DNA from: Alphaproteobacteria bacterium
Lineage (GTDB): Bacteria > Pseudomonadota > Alphaproteobacteria > Paracaedibacterales > CAITNM01
Length of the DNA: 64,000 nucleotides
Direction of reading: 5' to 3'
Assembly: GCA_947487955.1 (NCBI GenBank)
Contig: CANKYV010000005.1
Coordinates: forward strand, 940 to 64,939
Made by a program: the position numbers. Below, in pieces: positions 57,801 to 63,800 of this stretch; position 1 is the first letter of the stretch, and each line of letters begins with the position of its first letter.

Positions 57801-60800
57801 TGCTCGCGAATCCATTTATCGGAAAGTATCATTGAAATGCTCCTGAAATTTAATCTAAATCTTTAACAACGCTTATATCCGGCGCATCTACGGCTTTCAT
57901 TCCCACTACATGGTAACCAGAATCCACATGAATAACTTCACCTGTTACACCAGAACTTAATTCACTTAATAGATATAAAGCACTACCACCAACATCTTCT
58001 AGAGTGGTGTTGCGACGTAAAGGTGAATTGTATTGATTCCATTTTAAGATATAGCGAAAATCACCAATACCACTTGCTGCAAGTGTTTTAACAGGACCTG
58101 CGGATAATCCGTTTACACGAATATTTTTAGGGCCTAAATCCACGGCTAAATACTGCACGCTAGATTCAAGTGCCGCTTTTGCCACGCCCATTACGTTATA
58201 ATTTGGCATAACTTTTTCTGCCCCATAGTAGGTTAACGTAATCAACGAACCACCATTTGACATTAAGCGTTCAGCTTCGCGGCAGATTTTCGTAAAAGAA
58301 AAACAAGAGATATGCATTGTGTTTAAAAAATTAGCCAATGATGTATCACAATAACGGCCTTGTAATTCATTTTTGTCAGAAAAACCAATGGCATGCACAA
58401 CAAAGTCTAGAGAGCCCCACTTTTTTTCAATGATTTTGAAGGTGTTTTCAATGCTGTCATCTTTGCCAACGTCGCATTCCACCAAGAAATCCGAGCCCAA
58501 GCTTTCAGCTAAAGGCCGCACACGTTTCTCAAGGGTTTCACCTTGATAGCTAAACGCAAGCTCGGCACCTTGCTCGTGCAGCATTTTGGAAATTCCCCAT
58601 GCAAGAGAACTGCCATTTGCTACGCCCATAATTAGGCCTTTTTTGCCCTTCATTAACATTAATAAATCTCACTTAATTCATTGCTTTGAAGCATAGACAA
58701 TCAAGGGCTTGAGCGTCAATGGAATAAGTGAGATTTATTACATTTCACTAATCCACCTCTTCAGGTCTTTGCAACGATTCAATAAAAGTCTCGGTGTGAT
58801 CGTCAAATGGGCTAAAAAAGGTGAAAATTTCTATTTTAACTTTATGGGCTTTTTCAAAAGCACGAATGGAGGCACGAAGGCGGTCTGAGGCGTACTGAAT
58901 TTGCTCTTCAATGGTGTAACTGGGCGCATATTTCTCATCTTCTCGAAGGGTTCGTGCTATATCTTCCATGCGCCCTTGCGCTGCCATTACCCGTTCTAGG
59001 CAAATGCCTATACGTGGCCATTCATAAAGACGCGCCCTCTCCCTTTCTGATAGTGTTTCACTTTTGGTCAATTCTGCTTGATTCATGGGGCACCTTCTTG
59101 TTTTAAATAATGAGATTTAAACAGGCATAATTTTTAAAAAACTCTCGCTACATTCTTTTAGATATTCCTTTTCTTTCCCGCTTTTTTCTGGGTTAACAAA
59201 AGCAATACTTTCTTGATTTGCTAGTCTTTCTGATTGCCGATTACCTTGCGATTGATTCACACAGGTTAGAAAAATTGAGAGCACATTCAACACAACGCTT
59301 ACAAAGGTAAGTTGAACTATCAGGTTCTTTCTTGATCCTATCTTGCTTGATCTCATCTTGAGCCTCGTGGGTTATCACATGTGCAGATATTTCGCATAAT
59401 ATATTTATTATGTCAACACATCTGAAATAAATAATTTGAATTGCTTATTGTATGATTACCATTATAATAAATATATTATTGTTTGGGATTTTCCATATTT
59501 TTGGTATAAATAACGTATCTTTGAAATAATGATACTTAATGAGTATTGCAAAAAATCTACGCGCTATTATGCAAAAAAAGGGCATCTCTATTAACGCTCT
59601 TGAAAGAATGGCGGGTGTAAAACCTGGATCTGTTCAAAATATTCTTTATGGACGATCAAAAAATCCAGGAATAGAAACATTAATGGCTATCGCAAATGCT
59701 TTAGGCATTGCCCTAGATGAACTGCACGAAGGAAGCATTTCTTTTTCAGGAGCATCAATTTCTTGGGATATTAATCTTTACACCAAATCAGCGGAAGCAG
59801 TTCGTGACATTTTACACAGTGAATCACGCGCGTTGAGCAAAAGAGAATTTTTAGAATGTGTTGATAAAATTCATGAATATTCTAGAGCAAGCTTAAAAGA
59901 TAAAGTAGATTACACCTTTGCAAAATGGCTCCTGCAAGAAAAATCCCCTAAGCAACAAAAAAACACTTGAACCCCCTTCGTTTGAAAGCACATCTCGGCG
60001 CAAAATTTTATTAAAATTCTATTAGTACCTATCAAATATAATAGGTTGTTATTTTCTCAACATTGTTTAAACTTCCAGACCAACTTCTGAAATACTTATG
60101 TTTATTGCCAAGGAGGATATATTTGTGAAGAAAATTCCTTGCTATTTTTTCCCTAGTCAAGTTGTTCTTATCGATGATGATCGCACAATTCTGGATAATC
60201 TTGTTCCCTGCCTTGATGAAGACACTTCAGTGCATGTTACCTTTCAAAATCCTTTCAAAGCATTGGACTATGTAAACGCACAACCAAAGTATCAGCCTTC
60301 TTCCGATCAGCTTATTGAGGTTACCAATTCAGAAGAATGGCAGCATATACGTTTAGATTTTAACATTTATGATGTGCACAAAAGGGTGTACAATCCAAAT
60401 CGCTTCAAACAAATCTCTACCCTTGTTGTTGATTACCATATGCCAGGTATTAACGGTTTAGAATTTTGCGAAAAAATTACTAATTCCGGTGTTCAACGAA
60501 TTCTTCTAACCGGTGATGAAGATGAACATATTGCTATTGAGGCTTTTAATCAAGGGCTTATTCATGCCTATGTTAAAAAGCATGAATTTGAGGCAATCAA
60601 AAAATTAAAAAAAGCCATACATGATTCTCAATTCAATTACTTTCAAAATTTATCCAGGCTAACTATGAGCGCTGCTACTTTTGATAAATCAACTACAGCC
60701 TTGGAAGATTCGTGTTTTGTCGAGCTATTTTTTGATCTAATCAAAGAAAATAAGATTGTTGAGCATTACCTTCATGAAACCACGGGAACTTTTTTGTTTT

Positions 60801-63800
60801 TAAATAAAAAAGGCGAATCAAGCAGTCTATTCACCTTTACGCAAGATCAATTAGACCTGATATCAAGCTTTCACGACTATTCTGGCCCTTTATTTGACAG
60901 CTTGAAAACATATGAGCAAATTTTATGTTTTCACAGTAGAGAAACCGTGGAAATTCCTTCACCATCGCAGTGGCATCAATACGTAAGGCCAGCACAACTT
61001 CTTCAAGGAGATCAACGTTATTACTACGCTTATGGCGCTAATGGTTTTGATTTAGACCATAGTCAAATTCTCTCTTTTGAGGCTTACTTAACAGCACGTT
61101 CTTACAATTGAGGAAAGCCGTCATCACGAAGGAGAGCAGCTCCTGTGGTGATCTAGTTAAACTGATTTTACCACGCTGGATTGCCACACCTCCTGCGGAG
61201 GTTCGCAAAGACAAAAAGCGCAACAAATGCCATCAATTATGCGTAGCAACCAACACAGGGAAAGCTAGTTTAAATGTGGTGTATTCGCCCTCAATAGAAT
61301 CACACGTAATATCTCCGCCAAAGCTCAACATTGTAGACTTACAAAAAGCGAGCCCTACCCCAGTCCCCCTGACTGTTCGTGAATAAAAATTTTCAAAAAT
61401 ATGAGGCAAAATAGAGGCAGGAATTCCCTGACTTGTATCTTTAAAATAAAGGTAATTGAATTTTTTCCCCATCTCTTGCCATATGTACAATTCCCCCTTA
61501 TCCGCCGCCCGAATGTAGTACAGGGCATTTTTGAGAAGATTAAACAATATATGCTTTACGTATAACTCATGACCCTTAAAAGAAAAATTGGTGGTTTGGT
61601 CCCAATGAATGAGCTTTTTTTGACTCTCGTCCAAAGGATATTCGCTTAGCATCAATTCAACGCAAGTGCTTATCTTACAATTTTTATAGTCATTCATTAT
61701 TGGTTTTCTTTTTAAATTCATGAGAAGCATATCAATGACAATAAATGCATTCCGCGTTGTTGTGTTAATGCGTTCTGGTACTGAATGCAATAATTCTAAA
61801 GCTTTTTGTGTTTCTTGTTTTTGTTCACTTGGTTGGTATTTTTCAAGAACGGGCAAACATTTTTTCATTGATTCAGCGATCATTGAAAGGCTTGCCAAAG
61901 GTGTGCGAAGTTCGTGGGCGATGGTAGCTGCCAAGCTTTCCATTGAGCGCAAACTTTCTCTTAGCTTCACAATTTCTTTATGACGTGAGAAAAAAATGCC
62001 AACAACGATGATAAAAGAATATTGATTGAAGGCTAAAGAGAGATCATCTGCAGTTGCTTGTATGTGAAAATTAGAGAAACCATGAAAAAGTGCATATACC
62101 CCAGCCCCTAGTACAGCACCAAATAAAACACTAATCAAGAAAACAAGCCAATCAACCAATAATATAAATAAAAACAAAGCCAGTGACATATTTGTAAGCC
62201 AACCCAAAGAAAGATTATTCTTTAAAAGCTGGTACGTACAAAAAAAGGGAAAGCTATACAAAAGAACCCCATGCCAATATAAAGGAAGATATTTTTGTGC
62301 TTTTTTCGGTAGATAGTCATAAAAAGCAAGAGGAATGGCTAAAATAGCGGCTAAAATGCGTAACATCCTGCTTTCATCTTGGTGCATAGCATTGTGCAAA
62401 ATAAAATAAGCAATAGGAAAATTTAGTAATCCTAGAATTCCATAAGCTCTATATTGAGCACCAAATAACTCAACACGGTTAGTTGAAAAAGCTAAAATTT
62501 TCTGGAGCATTTTTATATCACTTTCTTACTTTAATGGTAAATTAAGCTAGATTGCCACGCCTCTTGTAGAGGCTCGCAATGACGATACTTCACGGCCGTC
62601 ATGAGACCACGAAGTGGTCGTGGTGATCCAGTGAGTAATTTCATCATTATTATTTATCAACATTTAAGAAAAATAATCTTCTAAAGATCCTGCCCTGACT
62701 GTATCTAGCGTAAAACAATGAAATCCACCTCCAAAAATTCGTCGATGTCTATGACGAACAGGTATCGGTGTAAATCCATTCTGCTCTAATATTTTAATAA
62801 GTTCGGGGAAGCAAGCGTTAACAATTACTTTTTCTTCATCAAGTGATAGCACATTCAAATCAATATATTTAGTTGTTAACACTAAATCATCTGATTCATA
62901 GTTTGGAAATATATTCGCTTCTGGTTCTGGGGCATAAATAATATCCCACTTTTTTAAAAAATCAGGCAAAAGCTCAAAACATTCTTGATTACGCAGCAAA
63001 AGCTTACCCGGCTTTAATGGTAAAACTGTACTATCAATATGATGGTCTGTCAGTCTATATGCTTTATGCAGTCTAAATTTTTCCCCCAAATGTTTTTGCA
63101 ACCACTGAAAACCAAGATTATGGTTTTGAGTAGCGACATTTACCAATACATCTTTACCAAAACGAAGACATTGAGCACCATCAAACAGCATTTCATACCC
63201 CACATTAAGTGAAGGTACTTTTTTTTCATAAGGTTCTTCTGTGCTATAAGTAAGTGCCTCAATTTCTTCAACATACGAAAAATCAAAAGAACTATCTGTC
63301 ATCACAGGTCTTGGCATAGCAGTCCACTTAGAACCAAGGTTGAAGTAGTGGTAAAAAATTGGTTTTAAAAGATCATTCTCAAAATAGCGCGCCCTTACCT
63401 GAGGGCTAGTTTCAATAATCTCATCACCAAATATTATAGCTTGGTCACGCACATTCAACGCAGGAATCCCTGTGGCTTTCCAGTGTGGTGTCTTAAATTC
63501 AAATACATCTTTTAATTCTAAAGGCCTAAAAACTCTAACGCCTTCTTTTTCTAAGACATCTACAAACCCTTCAATATCTTCGTTTAATTCTTCCAAATAT
63601 CGCTTATTAATAGCTTGCCTTTTAATTTGTTCTGGGTTTGCCGAACTATCAATTTTGCCGTATTTGGGATAACCAAAAGCAGAAAAAGCTGTATCAAAAT
63701 AAAAAAGCTTGAAAGACAGATCGAGATCATTGGCTTCATAACTAAGGGGAGAGCCTACAATAACTTCTTTCAATGGGGACCATTCGTTATAACTATTTAT

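Follow-up and report, generated by a model that had tools for sequence, protein, structure and literature searches.

A chromosomally conserved LqsS-LqsR-type receptor pair with a divergent ligand pocket in an uncultured alphaproteobacterium close to the Paracaedibacteraceae

Receptors of the Lqs/Cqs type, which control virulence, motility and life-cycle switching in Legionella and Vibrio, belong to the small number of membrane-embedded histidine kinases whose ligand is known. In Legionella pneumophila, the sensor kinases LqsS and LqsT autophosphorylate at H200 and H204, respectively, the response regulator LqsR takes the phosphate at D108 and dimerises, and the signal LAI-1 inhibits autophosphorylation (PMC5289986). 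In CqsS, binding of CAI-1 displaces the sixth transmembrane (TM) helix, TM6, and breaks its extension into the cytosol (PMC13174287). Receptor genes can also be found without a synthase. Among 58 Legionella species, Herran et al. (2021) reported 19 with a complete lqs cluster, 20 with lqsR and/or lqsS but without lqsA, and 19 with none; lqsA was never found alone, and the receivers were proposed to listen to other species (PMC8023197). The receptor-only lqs locus and the idea of eavesdropping are already published and are not new in kind. Here we describe a kinase-regulator pair of this family in a 64,000-nucleotide stretch of contig CANKYV010000005.1 (assembly GCA_947487955.1), hereafter the window. 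We consider it a functional, chromosomally stable Lqs-family two-component pair, and we lean, with some reserve, towards a ligand that is no classical alpha-hydroxyketone (AHK) of the LAI-1 or CAI-1 type. The pair consists of the following parts.

60098..61111, plus strand: LqsR-family response regulator, 337 amino acids (match to PDB entry 6SY9, alignment and neighbour-joining tree)
61233..61955, minus strand: kinase residues 186-425 and stop codon, DHp domain (H-box AHELRTPL, H199) and HATPase_c domain (Pfam, identity to the LqsS core)
61956..62510, minus strand: kinase residues 1-185, the sensor part, with an N-terminal helix and a six-TM domain (identity to the LqsS TM domain, AlphaFold2, contact mapping)

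The kinase gene (61233-62510, minus strand) encodes 425 amino acids, in which Pfam finds HisKA and HATPase_c only. The phospho-acceptor is H199 in AHELRTPL, and H199, the N box and the G box are invariant in the kinase alignments. In an AlphaFold2 model (116 homologues; mean pLDDT 90.7), an N-terminal helix is followed by six predicted TM helices (TM1, 20-42; TM2, 48-62; TM3, 75-97; TM4, 102-118; TM5, 121-143; TM6, from 154), and TM6 is continuous with the DHp helix (residues 154-224). Kyte-Doolittle hydropathy gives three to four TM segments, an under-call relative to the six of the model. Neither Pfam nor the model shows a periplasmic, HAMP, PAS or receiver domain. The original prediction, made from the sequence alone, had described just such a kinase, with six packed helices joined to an H-box near residue 199 and an HATPase domain, and the description holds. 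Its placement in the LqsS/CqsS family is likewise borne out, rather than in an unrelated histidine kinase family: the TM domain shares 35% identity with L. pneumophila LqsS over 141 amino acids (E=1e-13) and the core 42% over 238 amino acids (E=2e-56). Full-length BLASTP further links the kinase to 57 LqsS/CqsS-like kinases from lqsR loci. A Foldseek search of the model against the PDB returned cytoplasmic kinase cores only; the copy searched contains no six-TM CqsS/LqsS structure. Sequence similarity and the predicted fold identify the protein as a CqsS/LqsS-type six-TM sensor kinase.

The regulator is, by sequence, a member of the LqsR family. It matches PDB chain 6SY9_A over residues 13-332 of 337 (E=1.8e-58). 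We take this chain to be L. pneumophila LqsR because, rebuilt from the alignment, it is 98% identical to the regulator that L. pneumophila subsp. fraseri encodes between lqsA and hdeD; its numbering begins at native residue 6. The DDD pocket is D26-D28 and the acceptor is D112 in VVDYHMPG, which is aligned to LqsR D108. An alignment of 13 family members shows no variation at D26, D27, D112, T138 and K161. The distance from the DD pocket to the acceptor is 85 residues, compared with about 44 in CheY-type receivers, so that an insert of about 40 amino acids must be present, and because this insert splits the receiver domain, Pfam Response_reg covers residues 102-168 only. The insert is common to LqsR (crystal structure 6SY9) and to 12 of the 12 aligned homologues. 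That it might be an artefact of the start codon, a possibility raised at the outset, is ruled out: it falls within the open reading frame, flanked by D27 and D112, and the crystal structure contains it. The insert had first been put at about 55 residues and is shorter than that; the remainder of the predicted layout, namely an LqsR-type protein with a DDD pocket, a displaced acceptor Asp and no helix-turn-helix (HTH), stands. In the C-terminal part of about 170 amino acids, we found no Pfam domain (none matches past residue 168) and no HTH or other DNA-binding motif. This part aligns, up to residue 332, with the LqsR-specific C-terminal domain of 6SY9. The L. pneumophila residues that the original prediction had quoted (LqsS H200 and LqsR D108) and the Legionella gene set lqsA, lqsR, hdeD and lqsS are both correct.

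The two genes are convergent, with 121 bp between their stop codons. In a neighbour-joining tree of regulators, the window clade groups with sequences of alphaproteobacterial symbionts, apart from the branch of Legionella, Paraburkholderia and Gallionella. Since this tree agrees with the grouping of the kinases by pocket signature and similarity, kinase and regulator appear to co-evolve as a pair. Two LqsR homologues on low-context contigs binned as Myxococcota/Myxococcales (L003 and L005) fall inside the alphaproteobacterial symbiont clade, and these labels may reflect mis-binning. The kinase-regulator module is amplified in some symbiont genomes: Candidatus Odyssella thessalonicensis has two LqsR-family genes within 7 kb (L047:3155-4195 and 10016-11014), and one metagenome-assembled genome (MAG) of the Nucleicultricaceae has at least three kinase-regulator pairs on separate contigs (L034, L043 and L053).

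The ligand pocket of this receptor type has been described in a 2026 preprint by electron cryomicroscopy of V. harveyi CqsS with CAI-1. The head group is hydrogen-bonded by W33 (TM1), R47 (TM2) and S103 (TM4), and the tail contacts F26, Y29, L83, F86 and F87 as well as F158, F162 and F166 of the partner protomer (PMC13174287). Response to CAI-1 is lost in the W33F and F158A mutants; V. cholerae F91, S107 and F162, which correspond to V. harveyi F87, S103 and F158, were earlier known as essential or specificity-determining, S107 being the determinant for the C3 head group, where the Ser hydrogen-bonds the C3 hydroxyl (PMC13174287). With an offset of +11, the V. harveyi contacts become F37, F40, W44, R58, L94, F97, F98 and S114 of LqsS. 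The same mapping is given independently in a 2012 review, which equates V. cholerae S107 with LqsS S114, W104 with S111, F160/F162/F166 with I166/F168/A172, and C170 with T175/L176 (PMC3376566). By MAFFT alignments, the pocket positions of the window kinase were assigned as F31, A34, L38, R51, F87, F90, C91, W104, N107, Y164, F166, V170 and F173. Ten of them compare with the Vibrio contacts as follows.

V. harveyi F26: window kinase F31, kept
V. harveyi R47: window kinase R51, kept
V. harveyi L83: window kinase F87, conservative change
V. harveyi F86: window kinase F90, kept
V. cholerae W104: window kinase W104, kept, as in Vibrio
V. harveyi F158 / V. cholerae F162: window kinase F166, kept
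V. harveyi Y29: window kinase A34, changed
V. harveyi W33: window kinase L38, changed
V. harveyi F87 / V. cholerae F91: window kinase C91, changed
V. harveyi S103 / V. cholerae S107: window kinase N107, changed

Of the three residues that contact the head group, two are changed, as are two that contact the tail; smaller residues result at three of these four sites. The window kinase does not have the strict contact set of an AHK receptor, as it differs at the W33, S103, F87 and Y29 positions. The same pattern (small residue, Leu, small residue, Asn) is found in five kinases of the window clade and five more distant alphaproteobacterial kinases (Odyssella, Finniella, two from the Nucleicultricaceae MAG and one from an alphaproteobacterial MAG), with Pro in place of Leu in one, an aromatic residue at the Y29 position in two, and Phe at the F87 position in Finniella. 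The clade-specific residues L38 and N107 are conserved within the clade. With two head-group contacts out of three altered and side chains made smaller by three of the four substitutions, LAI-1 and CAI-1 are most likely not what this receptor binds. A related amphiphile whose head group differs, and is perhaps bulkier, is the more likely cognate ligand, and it could be of bacterial or host origin.

The metagenomic contig that contains the window is 77-78 kb long (ENA ERZ27280204; also in NCBI) and was read up to about 2 kb from one end and about 0.3 kb from the other. Searches at E<=1, by tblastn with 33 LqsA homologues and with a profile hidden Markov model made from these homologues, found no LqsA in the window, as the original prediction had stated, and none in about 11 kb more, together about 75 of the 77 kb; the positive control of the profile gave E=1.5e-213. 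The called genes of the contig contain no aminotransferase domain (PF00155), and no HdeD homologue occurs in the window.

Eighty LqsR-family loci from reference genomes were surveyed, using an alignment-based query (a single-protein regulator query matched none). Complete clusters are present in Paraburkholderia, Gallionella, Paludibacterium and others. Many Legionella species carry lqsS-lqsR with no lqsA within 10 kb, among them L. worsleiensis, L. erythra, L. londiniensis, L. quinlivanii and L. septentrionalis. The synthase gene adjoins the receptor gene in each of the 41 synthase-containing loci. All 41 lqsA-linked receptors scored (29 genomic and 12 from an independent metagenome scan) have Trp, Phe and Ser (the W/F/S triad) at the W33, F87 and S103 positions, and for the 31 receptors substituted at any triad position the locus contains no lqsA ([[41,10],[0,31]]; P = 6e-14, Fisher's exact test, shared ancestry not corrected for). 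The metagenome scan, which serves as an independent test of the rule linking triad and synthase, yielded mostly canonical or kinase-core-only relatives and no new members of the L38 type. A concrete and testable rule results: a receptor with the W/F/S triad is predicted to be linked to lqsA, and one that lacks the triad to have a different ligand. Among the 13 lqsA-less Legionella kinases, 7 have the full triad and 12 the Trp, as expected for recent loss of the synthase. In several of these kinases (L044, L059, L045, L028 and L030), LqsS R58 is replaced by His or Gln, S114 by Ala or Leu, and F98 by Ser or Tyr, and the lqsA-linked Legionella kinases are invariant at these three contact sites. 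Such scattered changes may indicate that ligand specificity relaxed or shifted once the synthase had been lost.

The window kinase belongs to a wider subfamily. A profile built from ten symbiont-type kinases (cut-off E<=1e-20) matched 812 proteins, and the best 120 of these are full-length and 36-77% identical to the window kinase. Few are named (Odyssella thessalonicensis, Paracaedibacter and Paracaedibacteraceae MAGs), and the labels are generic ('sensor histidine kinase') or refer to a HAMP domain. Among the best 119, the Arg at the R47 position is present in 117 and the Trp at the V. cholerae W104 position in 118, and the S103 position is Asn in 92. The W33 position is variable (W in 59, L in 33, N in 15), as is the F87 position (G in 49, F in 45, A in 11, C in 4); the F158 position also varies widely, and the canonical triad occurs in 12 of the 119. 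Judged from these alignments, the subfamily has a fixed scaffold and a diversifying pocket. In the loci examined, neither lqsA nor CqsA was found beside any receptor of the subfamily. Its best NCBIfam match is the LuxN kinase core, and Pfam and NCBIfam hold no model of the CqsS/LqsS membrane domain. Three members (P0147, P0158 and P0176) carry the public label 'HAMP domain-containing histidine kinase'; the model shows no HAMP domain, and by this model the label is wrong.

The chromosomal setting of the pair is conserved. The order murA-dcd-fabI-h112-XRE-RR-HK, in which RR and HK are the convergent regulator and kinase genes, is wholly or partly retained in four close relatives (Logan assemblies), and the contig of a fifth relative retains h112-XRE-RR-HK. 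Because the gene order is conserved in relatives, the pair is a stable chromosomal feature; a chimeric contig or a recent insertion was considered and rejected on the synteny in the four relatives.

The original prediction implied a Legionella-like setting, which is not what the other genes of the window indicate. The window encodes ChpT (PF10090) and TrcR (PF06242), which belong to the alphaproteobacterial CckA-ChpT-CtrA circuit, and its leucyl-tRNA synthetase (LeuRS) has about 20 metagenomic relatives at 75-86% identity. The nearest named relatives are Candidatus Finniella inopinata (62%) and Paracaedibacteraceae MAGs (61%), followed by Candidatus Paracaedibacter symbiosus and Candidatus Odyssella acanthamoebae (59%) and Candidatus Odyssella thessalonicensis (58%). 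On the strength of ChpT, TrcR and the LeuRS relatives, the sequence places the organism as an uncultured alphaproteobacterium near the Paracaedibacteraceae. Paracaedibacteraceae is a lineage of obligate protist associates, and a 2025 review of this lineage nowhere mentions quorum sensing, two-component systems or histidine kinases (PMC11909080). Our literature search found no paper connecting LqsR with Paracaedibacteraceae-type taxa. With an LqsS-LqsR module present in the Paracaedibacter/Odyssella lineage, the system reaches a second group of protist-associated bacteria that is unrelated to the first; there the ligand pocket is systematically remodelled and the canonical synthase is never present in the loci examined.

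How the pair may work can be proposed from LqsS and CqsS, because its catalytic residues and the continuity of TM6 with DHp match theirs; the residues and the continuity on which the LqsS/CqsS logic depends are all present. The kinase would form a dimer in the inner membrane, and its TM6 leads without a break into the DHp helix. By analogy, the ligand-free kinase would be on and autophosphorylate at H199, and the phosphate would pass from H199 to D112 of the LqsR-like regulator. The phosphorylated regulator would then dimerise and act via its non-DNA-binding C-terminal domain. A lipophilic ligand bound in the pocket formed by TM1-4 and TM6' would turn the kinase off.

Several points weigh against the reading that this is a functional Lqs-family pair tuned to a non-AHK ligand. 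The synthase search covers about 75 kb of one 77 kb contig of this genome, and the association between triad and lqsA ignores shared ancestry. The contact map is that of a V. harveyi CqsS preprint and was carried over through LqsS numbering. Some substitutions are tolerated, since L. pneumophila LqsS binds an AHK although several of its specificity positions differ from those of CqsS. Trp is retained at the W33 position in half of the wider subfamily, which makes the pocket variable and not uniformly remodelled.

The pair could instead receive AHKs of the LAI-1/CAI-1 type from other bacteria, such as Legionella in the same amoeba or biofilm. We regard this as unlikely. Receptor-only loci are common and the model is published (PMC8023197), the scaffold residues R51, W104, F31, F90 and F166 are retained, and relatives of the host organism are endosymbionts of protists, hosts that are shared with Legionella. 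However, V. harveyi CqsS W33F is blind to CAI-1, and the window kinase has Leu at this position. F91, essential for CAI-1 recognition in V. cholerae, is Cys here, and the Ser that contacts the C3 hydroxyl is Asn. Furthermore, the lqsA-less Legionella kinases mostly keep the triad residues, but the window clade does not. The original prediction had expected the conserved TM signature and had offered two choices, an orphan eavesdropper on LAI-1/CAI-1-like signals or a receptor for another ligand. The signature is there in part: the fold and R51, W104, F31, F90 and F166 agree, but the W33, F87 and S103 positions are L38, C91 and N107. Eavesdropping on LAI-1/CAI-1 is therefore disfavoured by the pocket, and the second choice is favoured. 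If the ligand were nonetheless simply an AHK, the locus would be another 'all ears' receiver, of modest interest.

The next explanation concerns the gene upstream of the kinase.

62664..63857, minus strand: L-arginine amidinotransferase family enzyme, 397 amino acids (PDB matches, GGGFHC motif), 153 bp upstream of the kinase gene and co-oriented with it

The enzyme matches five solved family members over residues 15-396 (E=2.8e-57 to 8e-49), with SxtG (6U1R) the best at E=2.8e-57; AGAT, StrB1 and HsvA also match, and its GGGFHC is aligned to the GGGFHC of AGAT. No Pfam or NCBIfam model matched. By these alignments it is a full-length member of the L-arginine amidinotransferase family with the catalytic-Cys motif, and it is possible that it is an accessory of the receptor module. 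The slot is filled likewise in locus L082, with a gap of 10 bp, and in locus L002, where the enzyme is 75% identical, the gap is 203 bp and all other flanking genes differ; no enzyme occupies the slot in L083 and L085. In more distant members of the subfamily, amine- or amino-acid-modifying enzymes adjoin the kinase, at these positions.

L047:12411-13376
L007:11623-13745
L172:9040-9987
L170:8395-9861
L171:8324-9853

In Odyssella, an EgtD-like methyltransferase (PF10017) lies 90 bp upstream of the kinase gene, and L007 also carries one. Class-I methyltransferases lie 6 bp (L007) and 13 bp (L172) upstream, and an oxidoreductase of the DAO family stands beside the kinase in P. symbiosus and L171. 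In no subfamily locus examined is the slot next to the kinase occupied by an aminotransferase or LqsA. This recurring layout of enzyme, then receptor resembles synthase-receptor pairs.

It is conceivable, although we consider it doubtful, that the amidinotransferase makes or modifies the cognate signal, with N-methyltransferases or DAO-type oxidoreductases in its place in relatives, so that the system would be complete but of new chemistry, for example with a guanidino- or N-methylated amphiphile as the signal. The short, co-oriented spacing upstream of the kinase in the window, L082 and L002, and that of the methyltransferases in Odyssella, L007 and L172, are what one would expect. SxtG, the best solved relative, amidinates an alpha-aminoketone that is produced by an AONS-type domain, the same class of chemistry as that of the CqsA product Am-CAI-1. 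The three large-to-small pocket substitutions would also be compatible with a bulkier head group. On the other hand, L083 and L085 share the kinase type without an enzyme in the slot, no AONS-type enzyme was found on the searched part of the contig, the products of amidinotransferases are usually hydrophilic, and little weight can be given to a few co-oriented genes in related genomes. A broader version, which we put forward just as tentatively, is that the window kinase represents an unrecognised, widespread CqsS/LqsS-like subfamily in which the synthase slot has been refilled by amine-modifying enzymes, each variant having its own non-AHK autoinducer. Such a subfamily would have hundreds of members, centred on Paracaedibacteraceae-type endosymbionts, and its signal here could be a guanidino-bearing amphiphile. 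In any case, the neighbouring enzymes provide a short list of candidates for a new signal. If the ligand were host-derived or made by the amidinotransferase, a new chemical channel of symbiont-host or symbiont-symbiont communication would be at hand; if the slot had been refilled throughout the subfamily, a new chemical class of bacterial signals inside or touching eukaryotic hosts.

A complete canonical system, with cqsA or lqsA elsewhere in the genome, beyond the 77 kb contig, and yielding an ordinary AHK, is still less probable, and we give it little weight. The genome is known here from one contig, and the second L. pneumophila kinase, LqsT, is unlinked, so lqs genes can be dispersed (PMC8023197). 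But the adjacency of synthase and receptor holds in all 41 loci, lqsA was never alone in the data of Herran et al. (PMC8023197), the 31 receptors with a non-canonical triad all lack lqsA within reach, and three further long contexts contain no aminotransferase. Finally, although the contact-site changes in lqsA-less Legionella kinases (R58 to His or Gln, S114 to Ala or Leu) suggest relaxed constraint, a decaying remnant of an ancestral Lqs system, with signalling lost and the pocket drifting, is hardly credible given that both reading frames are intact, no catalytic residue has been lost, R51 and W104 show almost no variation among 119 subfamily members, L38 and N107 are themselves conserved, and the pair is in conserved synteny in at least five related genomes.

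Upstream of the regulator gene, two further features were observed.

59539..59970, plus strand: XRE-family HTH regulator, 143 amino acids (Pfam HTH_3/HTH_26, E~1e-11), 127 bp upstream of the regulator gene
60027..60046, no strand assigned: inverted repeat ACCTAT-N8-ATAGGT overlapping a TATAAT box, 52 bp upstream of the regulator start, candidate operator/promoter

The XRE gene, whose place in front of the regulator had been correctly noted in the original prediction, is in the same position in five of six window-clade relatives. The half-sites TACCTAT and AGGTTG are invariant in an alignment of the XRE-regulator intergenic region from five relatives, and the perfect repeat ACCTAT-N8-ATAGGT has a single copy in the window. 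XRE regulators are typically dimeric on palindromes (PMC12565409). Judging from the intergenic alignment, the regulator gene probably has its own conserved promoter region with a palindromic candidate operator, to which an HTH protein would bind as a dimer. The conserved XRE neighbour is the first choice for this protein, and the analogy suggests that it may control expression of the regulator. A scan of 59.3-64 kb for sigma-70 promoters and intrinsic terminators gave fewer sites than shuffled sequences and nothing in the 121-bp convergent spacer. The XRE protein was also considered as an LvbR/BswR-type regulator of the Lqs network, which is unsupported: its PDB matches are to generic HTH proteins only, at E>=1e-4, and our literature search found no paper tying LvbR to XRE or BswR.

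Other genes of the contig bear on the organism. ChpT and TrcR, hallmarks of the CtrA cell-cycle circuit, lie at about 14386-15000 (L088:5945-6553) and 12000-12500 (L088:7974-8507) of the window, respectively. FliL and FliM genes are found at the window start (about 1114-2700), and because of these genes the Paracaedibacteraceae-like organism may be flagellated. A suspected second LeuRS just past the window end shares 22% identity only and is a different class-I synthetase. A Sulfotransfer_2 (PF03567) protein is encoded at 41182-42705 (plus strand) and a 1196-amino-acid protein at 46096-49686 (minus strand). The apparent counterpart of the latter in L083 has 977 amino acids and a weak Gly_transf_sug domain, and lies beside another Sulfotransfer_2 gene. 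In the subfamily relative L172, RhoGAP and patatin genes are close to the kinase (L172:3620-5838). These sulfotransferase, RhoGAP and patatin-type eukaryote-like functions fit a host-associated lifestyle. An Rfam scan of the window returned no RNA family.

Compared with the known systems, the window kinase shares with Vibrio CqsS the six-TM ligand module joined through TM6 to DHp, the TM2 Arg (V. harveyi R47, here R51), V. cholerae W104 (W104) and F162 (F166), and a bulky Phe at the tail-length position (V. harveyi F166, here F173). CqsS is a hybrid kinase whose C-terminal receiver feeds LuxU-LuxO and which is encoded next to cqsA, whereas the window kinase has neither receiver nor synthase, has an LqsR-type partner, and does not conserve W33, F87 and S103, as compared via LqsS numbering. 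The lqsA-cqsS-lqsR clusters of Paraburkholderia, Gallionella, Paludibacterium and other beta- and gammaproteobacteria encode the same regulator and kinase families, with 32-42% identity for the regulator and 33-40% for the kinase. The window pair differs from those complete clusters, in which kinase and regulator genes run in the same direction, lqsA lies beside them and the triad is invariably W/F/S.

The receptor-only Legionella loci are similar in having lqsS and lqsR without lqsA in a conserved chromosomal context (PMC8023197). Their kinases are close to LqsS (64-82% core identity) and mostly W/F/S, consistent with LAI-1 sensing. The window kinase, in contrast, lies in a deeply separate clade, and since no examined member of this clade has lqsA, its absence there is not a recent loss. 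The L. pneumophila locus (lqsA, lqsR, hdeD, lqsS) differs from that in the window, which has neither lqsA nor hdeD but an XRE gene upstream of the regulator and an amidinotransferase gene upstream of the kinase, in an alphaproteobacterial host; LqsS W44, F98 and S114 correspond to L38, C91 and N107, and LqsS S111 to W104, as in Vibrio. Nevertheless, the window pair is like LqsS-LqsR in its six-TM kinase without a receiver (H199 compared with H200), in its stand-alone regulator with a split receiver (D112 compared with D108) and the same C-terminal domain, at 36-37% identity, and in the convergent arrangement of the two genes.

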